Shown here in pieces: positions 31,396 through 57,931 of a DNA stretch of 64,000 nucleotides (position 1 is its first letter; each line of letters begins with the position of its first letter). The notes under the pieces were generated by a model. It was given only the letters and a program-made list of their open reading frames with translations. It searched no databases and was not told where the DNA came from. The stretch is from an uncultured Rhodospirillaceae bacterium (GTDB lineage: Bacteria; Pseudomonadota; Alphaproteobacteria; JAEUKQ01). The stretch is taken from contig CAYPXH010000002.1 of the NCBI GenBank assembly GCA_964414755.1, positions 38,696 through 102,695 on the forward strand. The letters are read 5' to 3'. A program made the translations under genes and the position numbers.

Positions 31396-32091
31396 ATGGC
31401 AGATTTAATTGACCACCGCTTCTATGGTCGCCGTAAGGGACGGCGTATGCGTGTGCGGCAGCAACAGGATTTTAATCAGTTGTTGCCAAAATTTTCTTTT
31501 AATCTACCAGAAAGTAGCTTTTGCAACCCAAAGCTATTTTTTTCAAGGCCAACTAAAGATATCTGGCTTGAGATTGGATTTGGTTACGGCGAGCATTTGG
31601 CTATTTTAGCTGAATGCAATCCTGATATTGGGTTTATTGGATGTGAAGTTTTTGAAAATGGTATTGGTCATCTTCTGTCCGCGATTGCAGAAAAGAATAT
31701 GGAAAACATTCGTATTTTTCCGCAACCAGCCCAACCATTGTTACAGCGGTTGCCAGATCAATCAATAGGGCGGATATTTTTACTTTTTCCTGATCCTTGG
31801 CCTAAAAAAAGGCACGCTCGCAGGCGCTTTGTCCAACCTGAAACTATCGAATTACTGGGCCGCATCTTAAAGGATGGCGGGGAATTGCGCATGGCAAGCG
31901 ATGATCCTGGGTTGATTACCTGGATTACTGAGCACATGATGCGCAGCCAAAATTTCCGTTGGCTTGCTGACTCTGCTGGTGACTGGCTAGCTCGGCCAGC
32001 CGACTGGCCGTCAAGTCGATATGAAGAGAAGGCAATTAACAAAGGAATACAACCGGTCTATTGGCGTTTTGAACGATTATCTCGGATTTGA
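31396..32091 (+). CDS. trmB: tRNA (guanine46-N7)-methyltransferase TrmB
   Basis: 231 aa. SAM-MTase fold with FPDPWPKKRH motif diagnostic of TrmB. Confidence 0.85.
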   Translation: MADLIDHRFYGRRKGRRMRVRQQQDFNQLLPKFSFNLPESSFCNPKLFFSRPTKDIWLEIGFGYGEHLAILAECNPDIGFIGCEVFENGIGHLLSAIAEKNMENIRIFPQPAQPLLQRLPDQSIGRIFLLFPDPWPKKRHARRRFVQPETIELLGRILKDGGELRMASDDPGLITWITEHMMRSQNFRWLADSAGDWLARPADWPSSRYEEKAINKGIQPVYWRFERLSRI

Positions 32092-32159
32092 TCGCTACCC
32101 TTGTGTTAACGGCTTGCACAAGAAAAAAGCGTATTAAGGAATAGTTGTTTAGCTCAAAA

Positions 32160-32726
32160 CTAGTCTCTTGAAGAAACTGAAGTCAATACAAGGGATTGAT
32201 AGTGGGGTGGTGGAGATTTTATACCTTTGAATAAAAACTCTTTGCTTTCGTCCCAATTAACACCGCTCTCAAAATAACATATTAATCTCTTCTTTAGTTT
32301 ACCGGGATCACCAATCATTCCTGCAAGTTCTATAAGATCAAGATCCTGATTAATATTCAAGCCAGCTTTGATAACAGGTTCTGGTAAAAGACGGGACGCT
32401 GGATGATGTTCTATTAAATTAGCCCCGTAACGTCCTGGCTCAATGATGGGGCTTAGTATTTTATTAGGAAGAGGGCGTAAGTTTGGCAGAACATCTGAAG
32501 ACCGCATTCTCGCAATCATGAGGGGGCGAAATTTCTGAGGGGCAGCTACGGCACAAAAAAGCTGTTCGGTTTTGTTAAGATCAATTCCTTCAAATTTTTC
32601 AAAGGCACTTTTAATATTAAAGAACTCCATCAAAGTAGGAGTACGAAGCTGTGTTAAAGTGAAAAGATCATCTTTTAATTTTAGTGAAAGAACTAAATTA
32701 TCACGATAAACTAACCTCTTTAGCAA
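32160..32726 (-). CDS. Hypothetical protein (no recognisable family), first gene of AT-rich islet
   Basis: 188-aa ORF in a markedly AT-rich segment. No motif I can assign. Confidence 0.35.
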   Translation of the reverse strand: MLKRLVYRDNLVLSLKLKDDLFTLTQLRTPTLMEFFNIKSAFEKFEGIDLNKTEQLFCAVAAPQKFRPLMIARMRSSDVLPNLRPLPNKILSPIIEPGRYGANLIEHHPASRLLPEPVIKAGLNINQDLDLIELAGMIGDPGKLKKRLICYFESGVNWDESKEFLFKGIKSPPPHYQSLVLTSVSSRD

Positions 32727-33090
32727 GAATTACTCCTAGCTTCTGTTACGGATAGTAAAAAGAAAAACGACCTAATTCGCCACATGGTTTGTTTAAGCCC
32801 ATTAAACTTAAGGGTTATGATTCTACCCAGCAGTTCGTGCTCAATAGATAAAAATTTACAGGCTGGTTTAAAAAGGTTATACCTACCCGAATTTACACAA
32901 ATAGCTAATAAATTGATCTTCAAGCCCACTCTTGCGTGCTATCACTAGGAATACCGCTAATCAAGACAATTATAGTTTATTAGCCATTTAATCACCCAAA
33001 ACTTGTTACCACAAAATTAAATTTTTCTACCTAGAATCCCGTTGATGGAACGGAACATATTGTAATGATGGGTTCAAAACAATGTACGCA

Positions 33091-33324
33091 TCACTTAAGA
33101 TATAAATTTTGACCCACATACCAACCAGTCATCATATCCAGAATGTTTCCTAATATAGCTATTTCTTTCTCGTTATCTTGTTCAGATAAGCTATTCATAT
33201 ACTGGTAAAAATTTTGGATAATTTCTTCTTTAGGGATGCCTTTAGCGTTTAATGCTTTGACGATCATCCTAAGGCGTAGGGTAGGGTTCTTGCTTTTAAG
33301 AGCTTTAGATATTAGATCTTTCAT
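33091..33324 (-). CDS. Small hypothetical protein (77 aa), translationally coupled to upstream 224-aa gene
   Basis: ATGA 4-nt overlap with the 33321..33995 ORF. Charged helical peptide in the AT-rich islet. Confidence 0.3.
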   Translation of the reverse strand: MKDLISKALKSKNPTLRLRMIVKALNAKGIPKEEIIQNFYQYMNSLSEQDNEKEIAILGNILDMMTGWYVGQNLYLK

Positions 33325-33995
33325 GAAAAAAGATTTTCTTTAAGAGGATTCAAAAGAGAAGCCTGTTTTTTTATGTCAACCAGCATTTGATATTTTTTCG
33401 GGAACTGGGTTTGAAAAGTGAGAATACCTTTTTTTGAAAGCTTATCTTCTTCAAAAGCCCAGCTTAAAACGTATTCAGCTATAAACCTATTTCGGTTTAT
33501 ACCGCAAGGGATTAATTGTTGACAATTATACTTCTTGTCTAAGCGCTGTAATAGTTTTTTTGCTAAAACCCGCAATGGCCAGTCGATCCAATTATTATAA
33601 CCCTTGGTCACTAAAATAAGTTTTCGTGAACGAATTATTTTGATTAACGTTACTTCGTTAACATTCGGGTGGGCTACAAAATATTCTAGAAAATTTTCAA
33701 TATTAAAGCTTCTTTGTTTTCTTAGTAAAAAGATTAGATCAGAAATTTTAACAAGTGATTTCTTAATAATCACTTCAATAAAATTCTTAGCTTCAATCAA
33801 GCACCTTCTGGGTTCACTATCAGTGTATATAATGCTTATAGCATAGCAGAAAATTTCTCGAAAGGTTCGTCGTTGATTTTTCCAAATACATTCAATTGTT
33901 GAGGTATCTTTATGATATTCTACAAGATATTTGGAAAATTTAGTACAACCCATTTTGCTTTTAAATTTTTTGTAAGTTACAAGCGTGATCGACAT
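33321..33995 (-). CDS. Hypothetical protein (224 aa), AT-rich islet
   Basis: Long ORF in ~30% GC DNA, same strand as neighbours. No recognisable motifs. Confidence 0.35.
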   Translation of the reverse strand: MSITLVTYKKFKSKMGCTKFSKYLVEYHKDTSTIECIWKNQRRTFREIFCYAISIIYTDSEPRRCLIEAKNFIEVIIKKSLVKISDLIFLLRKQRSFNIENFLEYFVAHPNVNEVTLIKIIRSRKLILVTKGYNNWIDWPLRVLAKKLLQRLDKKYNCQQLIPCGINRNRFIAEYVLSWAFEEDKLSKKGILTFQTQFPKKYQMLVDIKKQASLLNPLKENLFS

Positions 33996-34235
33996 ATTAA
34001 AGAATATGTTCTTATGATGGCAAGTAAATCATATTAACTTGTTTTTTCATAAAGTTTTTTAATCTAGATAATAATAGATTATTTGGATGAGTGGCTAAAC
34101 CCATGCTTTTGGCAAGAGAGTTTGGTAAATTTTTACCAACTTTACTAATGATAGGTAAGATAATGATTGAATATCTAATTCTTCTGCACAACATGTATTC
34201 TGAATAATCTAGATGACCCCCATTTTATCAAATCG

Positions 34236-34751
34236 CTATGTCGATCGGAATAATTTTTGCATCTCTTTTAGGTTTTGCATATTAATAGATTTATCTATTC
34301 CCAAATGCTTCACTTTTAGTGACCAATTCTGATTATAAAACCTAATATCAACATCTGTAAAAAATAATCCACTTTCACCAAATACAACATGCGCGTCCGA
34401 TAAAGAAGATGCCCACTGGTTTTTAATTGCAGGGTTATTCAGAGAAACAAATTGGGTTAATAAAATCCGCTGGTTGGTAACAGAAAGAACATAATTGGTG
34501 GTGCTATGAATAAACCATAAACCCAAAAGCGAGCAAATAGAGGTAAGAAAAGCGATAATTGCTGTAAAATTTCGACTGTTCTTTACGGAAATAGCTACAA
34601 CGACGATAAATAGTATTAAAAACAAATTAACTATCGGTGGAACAGGTTGTTTGGTTGTTAATAGTGCATATTTTATCTTTTCTTCGGGCTGAAGTACCAC
34701 ATCAGATAAAACCTTTTGTGCAACAGCTGGGTATGGTAAAATCATCAACAA
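34236..34751 (-). CDS. Membrane protein with bacterial PH domain (bPH_2 / YdbS-like)
   Basis: 171 aa. Two N-terminal TM helices, then a beta-rich domain with YVLSVTNQRILL, resembling the Y-x-x-T-x-x-R core of bPH_2 domains. Confidence 0.45.
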   Translation of the reverse strand: MLMILPYPAVAQKVLSDVVLQPEEKIKYALLTTKQPVPPIVNLFLILFIVVVAISVKNSRNFTAIIAFLTSICSLLGLWFIHSTTNYVLSVTNQRILLTQFVSLNNPAIKNQWASSLSDAHVVFGESGLFFTDVDIRFYNQNWSLKVKHLGIDKSINMQNLKEMQKLFRST

Positions 34752-34860
34752 TGTTCCATTATAGCTAGTAACAGAGCTTGTAATATAAGTGCAAAGTGCA
34801 CAGACGCAATGTATTTGTTCTTGATGGAAAATGATAAATAAATGCTGAATTTAAATAAAT

Positions 34861-34947
34861 TCTTGCCAAGGCCTAACGCGTGTGATATCATCCCACACGA
34901 AATCATCCTTACCACAAAGGGTGGGCCTGGTGCCCGCCCTTTTTGTT
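34861..34947 (+). ncRNA. Candidate small RNA: 5-bp hairpin (GTGTG..CACAC) plus strong intrinsic terminator, upstream of rimP
   Basis: Hairpin at 34880-34899. Then GGGTGGGC-ctggt-GCCCGCCC stem-loop (one G.U pair) followed by TTTTTGTT at 34919-34947. No ORF on this strand. Confidence 0.25.
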
Positions 34948-35000
34948 AGGTGCTATTAGTCAAAACTTTTTGTCTTTAGTGACAGCGGAATTTGTAACGT

Positions 35001-45946: not shown

Positions 45947-47356
45947 CTATTGAGAAATAATGAAAATGTTTTTCTTCCATTCCTTGACTTTCAAATGATC
46001 AAAACGACTGTTTAGACAAGATGATAAAAGGGCAACCTTGTCTTTAACTTGGATTTCAGTTAAGGGAGCGAACTCGTTGAGTCGGCTTGCGGGATTGACT
46101 CGACCATTTTCTTTACGCATGCGTAAAGATGATTTTAAACGGTGTCTTAAGAAGCGTATTTTGCGGTGTAAAATGGACAAGGGAGATATCTTAGGAAATC
46201 CGTGTTCTTCAATATAGTGTTCGATTAATGAAATAACCCTTTCAGCCCCCAGTTCTGGTCCATTGAAATTAGAAACAAATTTCTTAAATAAAATTTCTCG
46301 GTATAATGAGATCCGGTCATGTTGTTCGGTTGAAACTATTGCTTGGGGGTTGTTGCTTAACACTGTTATATACTTAAATAATGCATCAGGAGTAGTTACC
46401 TGGTAACTCAGATTATTTGGTAACATGGGGTCAAAATAAGCATGTGATATTGGTCTATAACTTACTGGCTGTAGGCCTAGGATAGCAGCCTCGACTGCAG
46501 TTGTGCATCCATTATGTATGAGAGCAGAACATGCTTTAAGCCAAGGAATAACATTTCCCTCGCGAATGACAACAATATTGGGGTGTTTTTTAGCTACTGC
46601 TACCCATAAGTCATAACCCTCGGCTGGGTGTGGTCTAATAATAATTCTAAAGTTGGAGAATTTTTCTGCTAACGACGGTAAAATTTGGATGAAGTGATCT
46701 AACAGTTGGTGGCGGTAAACTGCCAAATCAGGATCATAATTCTTAAGATTGGCATCAGCTGCTATGCTCCCTAATTCTTCCGGCAATGGTAGGTGCTTAT
46801 ATAATTTATTGAAGGGATTGACCTTACCAAAATTACTATTAAAAAGAATAAAACTTCCGTACTTTTTTTTAATTGAACTGACTTCGTGGTCAAAGAAGCC
46901 ACTAAACTCTGGTCGTAAAATATCAACCCGTGGATTACCGGTTATTTCAATTTGCCCGGGATTTGGGTGAAAATATTCAAGATTTTCTTTGTTGTCTTGA
47001 CCCCAAGCAAAAATAAGTTTGAAATAAGGTAAAGTGTCTTTGTGAACACGACGCTGGCGATAAAGTTCTGGTGAGTAATAAACGAGGGCTTCTTCATCCC
47101 ATCCTGTAATAATTGGTGTTATTACCCTTTGTAGGCTAGCAACCGTTTTATGGTGGCCTTCTGTTAGAGCTTTGGATATATAGATTGTGTTGAACAAATT
47201 TCCCAAGATTTTATTTCTTAATTCTATATGTTGACCAATAAAGACCCTGAAACCACGTTCGGCAGCAATACAGGATAACAACAGTTTTGCATCAAATTCG
47301 CGCACTTGCGACTCAACGGAAACAACTAGATTACCAATGGTTGTTATTGATTTCAT
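45947..47356 (-). CDS. Capsule polysaccharide biosynthesis protein, Capsule_synth family (KpsS/KpsC/LpsZ-like beta-Kdo transferase-like), paralog 2
   Basis: 469 aa. Motifs IIIRPHPAEG and VIREGNVIPWLKACSALIHNGCTTAVEAAILGLQPV resemble E. coli KpsS (IKHHPMD, VHD...LRHAKAVVTINSTAGISALI), recalled from memory. Tandem paralog of the upstream gene. Confidence 0.5.
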   Translation of the reverse strand: MKSITTIGNLVVSVESQVREFDAKLLLSCIAAERGFRVFIGQHIELRNKILGNLFNTIYISKALTEGHHKTVASLQRVITPIITGWDEEALVYYSPELYRQRRVHKDTLPYFKLIFAWGQDNKENLEYFHPNPGQIEITGNPRVDILRPEFSGFFDHEVSSIKKKYGSFILFNSNFGKVNPFNKLYKHLPLPEELGSIAADANLKNYDPDLAVYRHQLLDHFIQILPSLAEKFSNFRIIIRPHPAEGYDLWVAVAKKHPNIVVIREGNVIPWLKACSALIHNGCTTAVEAAILGLQPVSYRPISHAYFDPMLPNNLSYQVTTPDALFKYITVLSNNPQAIVSTEQHDRISLYREILFKKFVSNFNGPELGAERVISLIEHYIEEHGFPKISPLSILHRKIRFLRHRLKSSLRMRKENGRVNPASRLNEFAPLTEIQVKDKVALLSSCLNSRFDHLKVKEWKKNIFIISQ

Positions 47357-48759
47357 TATCTATCCGTTCTCAGAGAAAGATTGAAAATATTTTCTTTGTG
47401 TAGACTAATCTCTAAAGTATCAAAGCAACCATTCAGACATCTTGATAAAAGGGCTATCTTTTTTTGGATCGTCTCAAACGAGAGGGGTGGAAAATCGTTC
47501 TTACGCATGTCATCACTGTAACGGCTATTAACATCTCTCATAGCTGCCAGTTTTTGACGCTTGCGCTTAAGATAAGCCATTCTAGCCTTTAACTTTGAAA
47601 GCCAACATGTTTTCACTTGCTTTCCATTCGCATGTCTTTGAATCTCGTCGAGAATCAATTCGCTTGACAACCTACCTCTAGGATTAGTTATATAATTATC
47701 AATTATTTCCGAAAAATCTTTTTGCGTATTATAAGGTAGGCAAGAGTTATTTTGGTTAGCGTATATCAGCGATTTTAGGGTGCTTACAAGCTCATCCGCA
47801 CTGTAAGTTGGGAGACTGAGTCGAGTTGGCAAAAACGGATCAAAGCGCTCATCAACTAAGGGGTTATAAGAGATTACTGGAACATTCATAATACGCGCCT
47901 CTATGGACGTTGTACAGCCATTATGCAAAACCAGTTTACAGGCTTTCAGCCAATTAACTATGTTACCATCGCGTACAACACAAACATTTGCACAATCTTT
48001 ACTAATCTTTATCCATGGTTCGTGACTTTCTGCTGGATGAGGACGAATAACAAAACGCTGTTTAGGAAAGTTGTTGGCAAGTTGAGGTATAATTTCTAAG
48101 AACTTTTGAAATAACGCATTCTTATAAATAGCTAAATCTGCAACGTAATTTTTTTGGTTTATTTTGGAAAGAATAACTTTTTCTCCTGGCACAGGCAATT
48201 TTTTATAGAGGGTAGCAAATGGATTAACGCTACCAAAATTACTATTGAAAAGAACAAAATCCCCATATTCTTTCTTTATATTAGAGACATCTTGTTCAAA
48301 AAATGACTCAAATTCGCTCCTCAATAGATCACCACGAGGATTACCCGTAATGTAAACAGGAACATTGGTGTCATTATCCATGTTCCAGATAGCTGCACTA
48401 TCATTCCCCCAAGCAAACAAACCATCAAAAAGAGCCATGGATGGCTTATAAATGCGGCGCTTCCTATATAATTCTTGAGAATAATATACTAAAACTTCTT
48501 CATCCCAGCCAAAAATTCTAAAACCAAAACTTTTAATAAAGCTAAGAACTTTGAAACGCTGCGGTGTTATATCTTTTGCTAAGTAAGTCCCAACTGGTAA
48601 ATTACCAATCTCTAAATGAATATCGAATTGGTTGCCCAAAAATACATTAAAACCCCTAGTGGCAGCTAGGCAGGCCAGCAAAAGTTTTGCATCTAACTCG
48701 CGGATCTGTAATTCGATCGGAATAATAAGCGATGGTTTTTGTGATTGAATTGATGTCAT
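47356..48759 (-). CDS. Capsule polysaccharide biosynthesis protein, Capsule_synth family (KpsS/KpsC-like), paralog 1
   Basis: 467 aa. Collinear similarity to 45947..47356 throughout (ELDAKLLL, GWDEE-LVYYS-ELYR-RR, LFNSNFG-VNPF, RPHPAE, HNGCTT). Stop overlaps the start of the downstream paralog (TAATGA). Confidence 0.5.
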   Translation of the reverse strand: MTSIQSQKPSLIIPIELQIRELDAKLLLACLAATRGFNVFLGNQFDIHLEIGNLPVGTYLAKDITPQRFKVLSFIKSFGFRIFGWDEEVLVYYSQELYRKRRIYKPSMALFDGLFAWGNDSAAIWNMDNDTNVPVYITGNPRGDLLRSEFESFFEQDVSNIKKEYGDFVLFNSNFGSVNPFATLYKKLPVPGEKVILSKINQKNYVADLAIYKNALFQKFLEIIPQLANNFPKQRFVIRPHPAESHEPWIKISKDCANVCVVRDGNIVNWLKACKLVLHNGCTTSIEARIMNVPVISYNPLVDERFDPFLPTRLSLPTYSADELVSTLKSLIYANQNNSCLPYNTQKDFSEIIDNYITNPRGRLSSELILDEIQRHANGKQVKTCWLSKLKARMAYLKRKRQKLAAMRDVNSRYSDDMRKNDFPPLSFETIQKKIALLSRCLNGCFDTLEISLHKENIFNLSLRTDR

Positions 48760-55986: not shown

Positions 55987-56060
55987 TGGAGCGGGTGAGG
56001 GGAATCGAACCCCCGTCGTAAGCTTGGGAAGCTTCTGCTCTACCATTGAGCTACACCCGC
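55987..56060 (-). tRNA. tRNA-Gly (anticodon CCC)
   Basis: Minus-strand sequence GCGGGTGTAGCTCAATGGTAGAGCAGAAGCTTCCCAAGCTTACGACGGGGGTTCGATTCCCCTCACCCGCTCCA folds as a cloverleaf. Anticodon loop TTCCCAA. Encoded CCA. Confidence 0.9.
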
Positions 56061-56168: not shown

Positions 56169-56801
56169 TTATTTAGGGCGGTATTTTGTATGATAACCCG
56201 GATTATCAGTTGGCCTTAATTGGTTTGGATACTCAATATCTGTCTTAATATCATAAGAAATTTGTTTTAATTTTTTGAAAACTTCATAAGGATCGGGAAT
56301 ATGTGATATAATGAAAGGCTTGCTTGTAAATGTTTTGTATTTATCAAAAGAAAAATTGCCAGCAGTTAAAATCATAATGCTGCCGCTGTTGCCGCCTGTT
56401 ATTATGTCTGCTAATCCAACATTGACCTGGATATTGGTAATTTTATCAAAATCTATCGCATCAAAATCACGGCCGATAATCCCTCGCTGCAAAACAACTC
56501 TTTTATCGGTAATAGCATATCTAATATATTTAAAATTTAGTAATGTTATAAGAAAGGGAATTAGGAATCTTAGGGCGATGAGAATACAAAATCCAATAAT
56601 TATATAAAGCCCAAAACCAATTTTCACCTCTAGAAATTCAGCAATTTCAAAAAACCCCCAAAAAATTACAAATATTAATATTGCTGTGCCTAAGCCAAAC
56701 GAAAATTCAAAGATTTTGGCTATAAAAAATGGCATAAATTTAGGTCCGGATTGCCAGAAAATCTGCTCGTTTTTGTCGAAAATTTGCTTAAATTCTTGCA
56801 A
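56169..56801 (-). CDS. Membrane protein with bacterial PH domain (bPH_2 / YdbS-like)
   Basis: 210 aa. Two TM helices followed by YAITDKRVVLQRGIIGRDFDAIDFDKITNIQV (bPH_2 signature). Lies between the two tRNA genes. Confidence 0.5.
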   Translation of the reverse strand: MQEFKQIFDKNEQIFWQSGPKFMPFFIAKIFEFSFGLGTAILIFVIFWGFFEIAEFLEVKIGFGLYIIIGFCILIALRFLIPFLITLLNFKYIRYAITDKRVVLQRGIIGRDFDAIDFDKITNIQVNVGLADIITGGNSGSIMILTAGNFSFDKYKTFTSKPFIISHIPDPYEVFKKLKQISYDIKTDIEYPNQLRPTDNPGYHTKYRPK

Positions 56802-56852: not shown

Positions 56853-56937
56853 TGGTGCCCCTTGCCGGACTCGAACCAGCACGTCTCTCAACACCTGATT
56901 TTGAGTCAGGCGCGTCTACCAATTCCGCCAAAGGGGC
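56853..56937 (-). tRNA. tRNA-Leu (anticodon CAA)
   Basis: Minus-strand GCCCCTTTGGCGGAATTGGTAGACGCGCCTGACTCAAAATCAGGTGTTGAGAGACGTGCTGGTTCGAGTCCGGCAAGGGGCACCA. Long variable arm. Anticodon loop CTCAAAA. Encoded CCA. Confidence 0.9.
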
Positions 56938-57012
56938 TTATGGGTACCAGTTGTTTACCCTTAAACATAAAATCCGTCAACAAAAATACTTTAAGTAAAG
57001 CTATTAGTAATT

Positions 57013-57328
57013 GGGGTCGACACAGAATTCGGAAAAAATAGTACGCTAAGATTAATTATCAGCTTATTATTCCTTCTCTTAGCGTGCTTTATTTTCGTTT
57101 CCTGAGGCGATTCCAAAAAGCCAAAATAATCTTGGTTAACAATACCACGAACCATCTGCATTCAATACCCCGTGCTAATCCACAGATTGGAATCGATAAA
57201 ATAGGGGTCGTTTGACGAAAGGGAAATAAAGCACCTTAAGACGATGGGAAGGGGCGCAAAGGCCTAAACTTCCAACCTATTGCTAAAACCTTAGCGTACT
57301 ATTTTTTCCGAATTCTGCGTCGATTCCT
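57013..57328. mobile_element. Tn3-family-derived miniature inverted-repeat element (TIME-like), copy A, 316 bp
   Basis: 38-bp terminal inverted repeats. Left IR 57013-57050 GGGGTCGACACAGAATTCGGAAAAAATAGTACGCTAAG. Right IR 57291-57328 reads (reverse complement) GGAATCGACGCAGAATTCGGAAAAAATAGTACGCTAAG. Outer GGGG and inner TAAG match the Tn3-family IR signature. No ORF inside. Confidence 0.6.
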
Positions 57329-57931
57329 ATATGAATCTTTTGGATCAGAATTTTCATTTCATCTAGGACCGATAATTGAGTTTTTTTACCACCTCAGGCA
57401 AGCTACTATCTTCCCATTTCGTCATTTTTCTTCTGAGCGCTATTTCTTTCTTAAAAGGGGTTAGATTATATTTTGACTCTGGTTATTGGAATAACACTAT
57501 TCCTCAAAATACTTAAAACGAAGTTAAATAATTATTATTTTACTACATATTCCATATTACATAATAAAACGCGGGTTTCAATCTGACTTAGATTTTTTTT
57601 ATGCCCATCAATAGCGGAGAAGTTTGGCTTAGCACTGAAATCATCGAACTCAAAAAAATATAATTCGATTGTCCTTGGTAGGACTTTAAAGCAACCCAAG
57701 CATTGAAGTTCGTATTTTTGTGGAGTCTTAGAGCATATTTGGCCATAGGCAGTAATGTTAATATGGTGAAACATTCAAGATTGAGACTGGAAAATTAAAC
57801 AACATGTTGTATCCCTTAAAATTGCAGTACGTAACTGCACTTGAAAACAAGCAGATCAGAGAAAAGATCAAGGTTCTTTGTAAGCATCGTTCGATGCTAT
57901 AAACTGGGCTATTATTACAATCATTATAGCT

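Follow-up and report, generated by a model that had tools for sequence, protein, structure and literature searches.

The window analysed here is a 64-kb stretch (64,000 nt) of contig CAYPXH010000002.1 from an uncultured Rhodospirillaceae bacterium, and the subject of this study is a short AT-rich islet that it carries between the housekeeping genes trmB and rimP, in the gene order lnt-metK-trmB, islet, rimP-nusA-infB. As described in the initial annotation and borne out by the list of open reading frames (ORFs), four co-directional ORFs lie here on the minus strand at 32160-32726, 33091-33324, 33321-33995 and 34236-34751; they are labelled by the lengths of their products (188, 77, 224 and 171 amino acids, aa) as w188, w77, w224 and w171, respectively. 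All four are real genes, since each of them has conserved homologues. The overlap of the w224 stop codon with the w77 start codon (ATGA) is also present, at 33321-33324. The GC dip reported earlier is pronounced, as the 1-kb windows of the islet have a GC content of 30.7-31.7%, which is about 3 standard deviations under the mean of the 64 kb (40.5%, standard deviation 3.3%, in 1-kb windows) and the lowest found in it. Gene by gene, GC content was 31.0% for w224, 33.3% for w77, 33.9% for w171, and 37.9% for w188 (less extreme than the rest of the islet), compared to 44.7% for trmB and 41.2% for rimP. In agreement with the same annotation, no integrase and no meaningful flanking repeat were found at the islet, and neither integron- or attC-like repeats nor direct repeats were found at the borders of the cassette delimited below. 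Rfam reported only two tRNAs in the whole window, both far from the islet.

The window was compared with loci from other contigs and genomes (numbered L015-L051), the contexts of DUF8309 genes (see below) being gathered from contig look-ups and from a scan taking one genome per species. The borders of the islet were delimited by comparison with a sister species of the window (L017-L019). Sister-species proteins are 99.0% (metK), 98.6% (nusA), 98.0% (infB), 94.8% (trmB), and 94.0% (rimP) identical to those of the window. At the DNA level, the window aligned to L017 (blastn) with 92% identity over 35676-34171 and 32075-31301, and between 34171 and 32075 it gave only patchy matches of 67-80%. Because homology to the sister species collapses between the conserved trmB and w171/rimP flanks, the variable cassette is placed at ~32076-34170. 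The islet as first annotated, with four genes filling the interval between trmB and rimP, was thus right in that a variable AT-rich segment exists, but the true unit has three genes and leaves w171 outside. The product of w171 is 87% identical to its sister-species counterpart (92% at the nucleotide level), and homology to the sister continues through w171 to 34171; this gene therefore belongs to the conserved rimP flank and not to the exchanged cassette. Within the window's own species the islet was invariant among four independent metagenome contigs, where raised polymorphism in the islet was looked for and not found. The features of the locus are listed below, where CT126 and CT107 are the two C-terminal domains of RHS proteins described in the next section.

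32076-34170, no strand: variable cassette (the true islet), in which homology to the sister species is lost; GC 33.7%
32160-32726, minus strand: w188, DUF8309 (PF26977), 188 aa, TTG start; candidate orphan immunity protein against CT126
32727-33090, no strand: spacer of 365 nt between w77 and w188; homology and toxin remnant not detected
33091-33324, minus strand: w77, 77 aa, lineage-specific partner or extension of w224; ATGA translational coupling
33321-33995, minus strand: w224, member of an alpha-solenoid family; candidate orphan immunity protein against CT107
33996-34170, no strand: unique AT-rich spacer upstream of w224, ~28% GC, with several minus-strand promoter-like sites
34236-34751, minus strand: w171, membrane protein with two predicted transmembrane helices; conserved rimP flank, outside the cassette

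The 365-nt spacer gave no match in tblastn searches that used the C-terminal domains of the RHS proteins and every neighbour protein as queries, nor in blastn-short searches against L017, L031, and L037, and toxin remnants sought in the 365-nt and 240-nt spacers were not found. Upstream of w224, promoter-like minus-strand sites lie at 34177-34148, 34097-34068, and 34023-33994, and the spacer at 33996-34170 is likely the cassette's own promoter region.

Relatives of the islet genes behind RHS toxin domains

Profile searches of the four ORFs and of two intergenic ORFs with Pfam, PADLOC, NCBIfam, and PHROGs returned nothing significant, and sub-threshold matches to WH_Rok, Cmr5, DUF4131, and MotB_plug were treated as noise. 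The scan of w188 was silent because the Pfam release used for hmmscan predates PF26977 (DUF8309), a family to which w188 and all 8 of its homologue clusters carry a precomputed match. The earlier description of the ORFs as uncharacterised stood only in part: w188 is a DUF8309 protein and w224 a member of a family of 32 clusters (see below), but no function is assigned to DUF8309. No mention of DUF8309 was found in the literature searched, and a sequence search of this family against the PDB gave no match.

Elsewhere, DUF8309 genes are linked to RHS genes. An RHS gene lies directly before the DUF8309 gene, the DUF8309 start usually overlapping the RHS stop codon and otherwise abutting it, at L015/16, L022, L024, L026, L027, L029, and L051, the hosts including Pseudomonas salmasensis (L024), P. 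paraveronii (L026), P. cyclaminis (L027), a Bryobacteraceae metagenome-assembled genome (MAG; L029), and a contig with 62% GC (L051). The PAAR-RHS identity of the proteins abutting DUF8309 was confirmed by Pfam or by homology. In all of these loci (7/7, from unrelated genomes), the RHS protein ends in the same domain of ~126 aa (CT126; 57-95% identity), which starts after the DPxGL/DPxGW demarcation of the RHS protein and has an isoelectric point (pI) of ~10 in most copies and of 7.7 in the L029 copy. RHS genes of the Tox-SHH (L020/21, L025) or AHH (L028) type have a different first downstream gene, namely their own immunity gene, and DUF8309 comes next. The order at L051 is RHS-CT126, DUF8309, Imm26-like, DUF8309, so that this locus holds two DUF8309 copies, as does L028; at L020 a SUKH-like gene precedes DUF8309, and at L039 a DUF8309 member (hhalign probability 97%) lies within an array of co-directional small genes. 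Lone copies beside housekeeping genes were found in the window, in L017, and in L049/50. The RHS-linked members are 41-49% identical to w188.

The CT126 domain was located at 7627-8004 in L024, 3007-3384 in L022, 7615-7923 in L029, and ~2224-2598 in L051, with the motif THITYVGxKDGxPYVGYAS...ARGLEQRI...NxQxPVGP and with DUF8309 as the next gene in every case. Its interpretation as a GIY-YIG-like nuclease, guessed from the pattern TYVG...YVGY...R...E...N, was dropped, as Pfam was silent at E<=10. Directly after DUF8309 in the RHS loci stands a conserved 102-aa gene (product ending in EYAEEWRGDW), often with overlapping stop and start codons (L020 7513-7821, L015 1273-1581, L024 8549-8854, L026 5964-6269, and L028 9350-9631); this gene is absent from the window. 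At L015 (GCA_942641665.1), a 380-aa ankyrin-repeat protein is encoded at 1697-2839, just downstream of the RHS-DUF8309-102-aa module, and is accompanied by two related ORFs of 220 and 119 aa.

For w224, a word-indexed homologue search found matches in its own species only, and the view of this gene as an ORFan was overturned by an exhaustive HMMER search, which recovered a family of 32 representative clusters (16 at E<=1e-10) with members of ~190-230 aa and the motif EYxLSWAFEExKLSxxGIxYFxxxFPKKY. Gene callers and the family alignment favour a w224 start at 33953, which gives a product of 210 aa. The structure predicted for the single chain is a confident alpha-solenoid without a catalytic fold, and the family had no match in a PDB sequence search. 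As with DUF8309, some of its members follow RHS genes. At L035 and L036, the gene upstream ends in an RHS core (…YYNRYRYFDP…DPLGL…WVDPLGL) plus a domain of ~107 aa (CT107), and the family gene begins at its stop codon; at L041, an RHS C-terminal fragment with CT107 lies upstream of the family gene; and at L045, an RHS protein of 1412 aa, confirmed by Pfam and with CT107 as its last ~107 residues, is encoded ahead of the family gene. This domain, with a pI of ~10, was therefore present in 4/4 RHS-linked loci of the w224 family (54-63% identity), and the family members at such loci are 25-30% identical to w224. Elsewhere, members of the family belong to low-GC arrays of genes that run in the same direction and encode proteins of 100-250 aa (L039, L040, L042, L043/44, L046/47), where a Pfam scan of 38 array neighbours identified SMI1_KNR4/SUKH-1 (3), SUKH_6 (2), SUKH_5, and Imm9. 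The L039 array holds the DUF8309 member mentioned above, a SUKH-1 gene, and a w224-family member.

The positions of CT107 are 146-469 in L035, 35-349 in L036, 371-691 in L041, and 5293-5601 in L045, its motif is …HADPIHFHxE…RKAEKRIANYIRKV…, and the w224-family gene is next in every case. An assignment of CT107 or CT126 to the recently described Tox-REHH toxin was not supported by a comparison of immunity partners, as those listed for Tox-REHH (Imm22, SUKH, CdiI-like, Imm24) are others.

The third cassette gene, w77, had no family match in profile searches (including Pfam, PADLOC, NCBIfam, and PHROGs), and its possible relationship to the 102-aa gene that follows DUF8309 was rejected at an hhalign probability of 1.3%. 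Its relatives stand beside or within w224-like genes: at L031 an 87-aa gene following the w224-like gene is 49% identical to w77 (E 3e-19), at L037 the w224-like ORF runs on in frame into a w77-like segment, and the "273-aa" ORF at L017 represents this same fusion, its tail being frameshifted. Members of the w224 family outside this clade, of ~200 aa, are without the w77 segment. On this distribution, we regard w77 as a clade-specific add-on of w224. The occurrence of the two parts in both split and fused form argues that w224 and w77 work together, and it argues against a toxin-antitoxin pair.

Exchange of cassettes at the trmB 3' end

At least four alphaproteobacterial lineages carry the cassette at the 3' end of trmB. 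At both L031 and L037, a 143-aa gene, a w224-like gene, and a w77-like gene follow each other on one strand and face trmB on the other. Identity to the window is 71% (trmB), 87% (metK), and 60% (lnt) for L031, and 70% for trmB of L037. Because L031 and L037 keep the cassette in place at ~70% trmB identity, its association with the trmB 3' end is old. Conservation of the same genes at this locus had been set as the test of the accessory nature of the islet, and the outcome was mixed: the 224+77 pair does recur at the trmB 3' end in L031 and L037, but its alleles are exchanged and it behaves as an accessory module.

This exchange is visible at two distances. Inside the cassette, the window and L017 share only 56% amino-acid identity for DUF8309 and 42% for the w224-like protein, compared to 94-99% for the housekeeping proteins, and the gene order is w224-w77-DUF8309 in the window and 143-aa remnant-DUF8309-w224-like in L017. 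Between L017 and L037, nucleotide identity is 91.3% for the 143-like gene and 92.7% for the w224/w77-like gene, and that of the abutting trmB is 68.6%; cassette identities of 91-93% beside a trmB identity of 68.6% indicate that the cassette was horizontally exchanged. The view that the islet is an accessory, horizontally exchanged module rather than a housekeeping one, as the initial annotation had it, is supported by these values. Signs of decay were also observed. Of the DUF8309 ORF, L037 retains no more than 10 nt at the start and ~21 nt at the end (ATGCCACAGC followed by AAATCAATTCTTTATAG), so that its interior is deleted in comparison with L017; L037 also has a frameshift in its w224-like gene, and the 143-like gene is 5'-truncated in L017. 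Overall, the slot and its type of content are old, and the alleles are swapped, deleted, and frameshifted, which is the behaviour of accessory and not of core genes. No recombinase and no repeats that might serve the exchange were found at the trmB slot.

The 143-aa family, whose members come first in the trmB-linked cassettes of related lineages (L031 1106-1537; L037 1704-2138 and 506-762; L017 8859-9218), is absent from the window; in L017 it is a truncated remnant, and in L037 it is duplicated as a fragment.

Proposed orphan immunity, its alternatives and known systems

We propose that ~32076-34170 is probably a small cluster of orphan immunity genes directed against polymorphic toxins of the T6SS/RHS kind (T6SS, type VI secretion system). 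An immunity role of both families is supported by three independent lines, namely by their position behind toxin domains, by their strict co-variation with one toxin-domain family each across unrelated hosts (7/7 for CT126 and 4/4 for CT107), and by their occurrence in arrays with established immunity families (SUKH-1/5/6, Imm9, and Imm26-like). Among the roles that the initial annotation had listed, an immunity pair is the one favoured by this RHS linkage and by the arrays in relatives. The relatives stand directly downstream of a toxin C-terminus on the same strand, and the window copies have no toxin adjacent to them. No similarity to RHS, PAAR, VgrG-like, or toxin C-terminal sequences was found in the 64-kb window, and as neither an RHS gene nor a toxin remnant is present there, the islet genes are orphan within the available sequence.

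Mechanistically, w188, and w224 together with its add-on w77, would be non-enzymatic binding proteins. A neighbouring bacterium would inject an RHS effector carrying CT126, matched by DUF8309, or CT107, matched by the w224 family, and the resident immunity protein would bind the injected toxin domain stoichiometrically and block it, such that the cell would survive with no toxin gene beside its immunity gene. That the window copies bind and neutralise toxins, and that these toxins come from competitors, is suggested by the family context described above. The slot at the trmB 3' end would be used in this way by several lineages, with alleles that are horizontally exchanged, reshuffled, deleted, and frameshifted. 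Both families are mostly acidic (median pI ~5.7; 6/9 DUF8309 and 23/28 w224-family members), and they would thereby complement basic toxin domains.

Several observations weigh against orphan immunity. The window copies themselves are basic outliers of their families, with a pI of 9.2 for w188 and of 9.7, at a net charge of +16.6, for w224, which could reflect AT-driven lysine enrichment or else a change of function or drift. Of the two candidate toxin domains, CT126 had no Pfam match (E<=10) and no PDB match, and CT107 had no PDB match and only a sub-threshold Pfam match to DUF4160 (E 0.0017); w77 and the 143-aa cassette gene had no link to toxin systems. The 224+77 pair has been kept beside trmB at ~70% trmB identity and the islet is invariant within the species, a pattern that a lineage-specific, domesticated gene would show as well. 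Finally, the orphan status applies to the 64-kb window, and matching RHS toxins could be encoded elsewhere in the genome.

This last point leads to a cognate self-immunity, in which RHS or other polymorphic toxins with domains of the CT126/CT107 type are encoded elsewhere in the genome and the genes beside trmB serve as unlinked or spare copies, protecting the cell from attack by siblings. Such an arrangement would draw on the same family evidence as orphan immunity, the inspection covered 64 kb of a genome whose source contig alone measures 107 kb, and RHS genomes often carry extra immunity copies, such as the two DUF8309 genes in each of L028 and L051. We nevertheless consider it unlikely, since the toxin-bearing genomes seen here keep the immunity gene few genes downstream of RHS on the same strand, the window is free of RHS, PAAR, and VgrG-like sequence, and the RHS-linked members share only 41-49% (DUF8309) and 25-30% (w224) identity with the copies in the islet. 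Quite unlikely, too, is a domestication of the 224+77 pair (and perhaps of DUF8309), whereby genes descended from immunity proteins would now have another cellular role, e.g., binding an endogenous basic or nucleic-acid-associated partner. The pair's conserved position at the 3' end of trmB (at least four lineages), the gain of the clade-specific 77-aa domain, the strong shift of charge to basic relative to the family, and the lack of within-species polymorphism are all consistent with it. However, the genes decay in relatives (a w224-like frameshift in L037, a frameshifted w77 tail in L017, and the DUF8309 deletion in L037), alleles have been replaced between near-identical genomes (42% compared to 94-99% identity), gene order varies, and the most conserved family motif, EYxLSWAFEE, is kept. 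A more far-reaching combination is put forward here tentatively and is, in our judgement, rather unlikely to hold as a whole: the trmB 3' end would be a recombinase-free exchange slot for immunity genes across an uncultured alphaproteobacterial family, with two new RHS toxin/immunity pairs (CT126-DUF8309 and CT107-w224) and a two-part w224+w77 immunity protein, split or fused, whose strongly basic alphaproteobacterial forms would have re-tuned their specificity or taken on a new cellular role.

The other roles suggested initially fare worse than orphan immunity. If w224 and w77, coupled through ATGA, made up a type II toxin-antitoxin pair or a comparable addiction module, this would fit two small, translationally coupled genes within an accessory segment rich in AT, but such a pair is very improbable, as no toxin-antitoxin, nuclease, or DNA-binding family was matched at meaningful E-values, both parts form a single ORF in L037, ~30 clusters of the w224 family are without the 77-aa partner (several of them behind RHS toxins or in immunity arrays), and w224 is modelled as an alpha-solenoid. 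Still more improbable is an anti-phage defence system, including abortive infection, or a prophage remnant. The genes are indeed AT-rich, co-directional, and uncharacterised, and PADLOC gave a sub-threshold match of w77 to Cmr5 (E 0.0028, 16 bits), but neither PADLOC nor PHROGs yielded a significant match (best PHROGs match phrog_12313, E 0.014), no integrase, repeats, or phage genes were found nearby, and no enzymatic domain was recognised. Among 2.9 million viral contigs, no relatives of DUF8309 or of the w224 family were found.

Orphan immunity genes of the kind proposed here have precedents. Experiments in Bacteroidales and Serratia have established that such genes protect against T6SS effectors of non-self origin (PMC12247911, PMC10470768, PMC10539506), and immunity arrays that arise from effector displacement are documented (PMC5361080, PMC3150448, PMC3482391). 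Similar to the acquired interbacterial defence (AID) and recombinase-associated AID (rAID) systems, the orphan immunity genes of Serratia Rhs loci, and the Vibrio cholerae arrays (PMC12247911, PMC10470768, PMC10539506, PMC5361080), the islet has immunity-type genes without an effector beside them. As in AID systems, its genes diverge from effector-linked cognates, are horizontally exchanged, and lie in a compositionally distinct segment, and their families occur both in effector-immunity bicistrons and in arrays of immunity genes only. Unlike AID/rAID systems, the islet is tiny (two immunity-type genes plus an add-on), is without mobile-element genes, and occupies a fixed slot between the housekeeping genes trmB and rimP of an uncultured alphaproteobacterial host. 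Its families are a DUF and an unannotated family instead of SUKH/Imm, with protection suggested by family context. Furthermore, rAID systems are defined by a tyrosine recombinase and repeated intergenic sequences, and neither was found at the islet, which should accordingly not be classed as rAID. The displaced toxin-immunity cassettes of Rhs loci (Poole et al. 2011, PMC3150448; Zhang et al. 2012, PMC3482391) offer a further parallel, in that relatives of the window genes stand in the RhsI position after a PxxxxDPxGL-delimited toxin domain, often overlapping its stop codon, and DUF8309 relatives also occur as displaced downstream modules (L020, L025, L028, L051). Unlike those loci, the window has no rhs gene, rhs core fragment, or orphan toxin fragment, and thus presents the immunity side only. 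For Pfam PF26977, which w188 matches, the RHS/CT126 linkage reported here supplies a functional hypothesis. Overall, the islet most likely belongs to an already known kind of locus, that of orphan interbacterial-immunity genes; its notable features are the roles proposed for DUF8309 and for an unannotated family, the two uncharacterised RHS toxin domains, and the recombinase-free exchange slot between core genes.

If orphan immunity is correct, DUF8309 and an as yet unannotated family of alpha-solenoid proteins (~200 aa) would gain an immunity function, and two very basic C-terminal domains of RHS proteins would be flagged as candidate toxins in Pseudomonas, a Bryobacteraceae MAG, and other hosts. 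The concept of orphan immunity and AID, studied mainly in gut Bacteroidales and enterobacteria, would be extended to an uncultured alphaproteobacterium whose contigs carry sample labels of sewage surveys. The islet would represent a minimal recombinase-free cassette between core translation genes, with horizontal exchange of alleles at a fixed slot. For annotation, the lesson would be that "hypothetical proteins" grouped in a small AT-rich islet may mark a locus of interbacterial rather than anti-phage defence.

Membrane proteins and other features of the window

The product of w171, on the rimP side of the cassette, is lineage-restricted, with 3 homologue clusters and a precomputed Pfam domain in none of them, and it had no match in a PDB sequence search. 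The bPH_2 label given to this ORF (34236-34751) is unsupported by its sequence: Pfam (PF03703) gave no match even at E<=1, and an hhalign comparison with the genuine bPH_2 protein of the window returned a probability of 0.1%. That genuine bPH_2 membrane protein (210 aa; PF03703, E 1.5e-7) is encoded on the minus strand at 56169-56801, between tRNA genes at 55990-56060 and 56856-56937, both also on the minus strand, and a low-GC, ORF-poor stretch at ~57000-57900 adjoins it. The sister-species counterpart of w171 (L017 8079-8741) is called as a 220-aa protein with a 49-aa N-terminal extension, which matches a separate 56-aa ORF of the window (34745-34915, minus strand) in another frame; the difference upstream of w171 is either a frameshift or an over-extended gene call.

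Two further observations lie outside the islet. Tandem paralogues of 469 and 467 aa, 41% identical to each other, are encoded on the minus strand at 45947-47356 and 47356-48759; neither had a Pfam match at 1e-3, and the second lies in a further low-GC patch (48.0-49.7 kb). On the plus strand at 34863-34950, a GC-rich hairpin (GGGTGGGC...GCCCGCCC) and a T-run come after a promoter-like site, TTGCCA-17-TATCAT, which has a TG upstream of it. From the end of the hairpin it is ~50 nt to the start codon of rimP, and the DNA is 92% conserved with the sister species. This element may serve the rimP-nusA-infB operon as a leader or attenuator.

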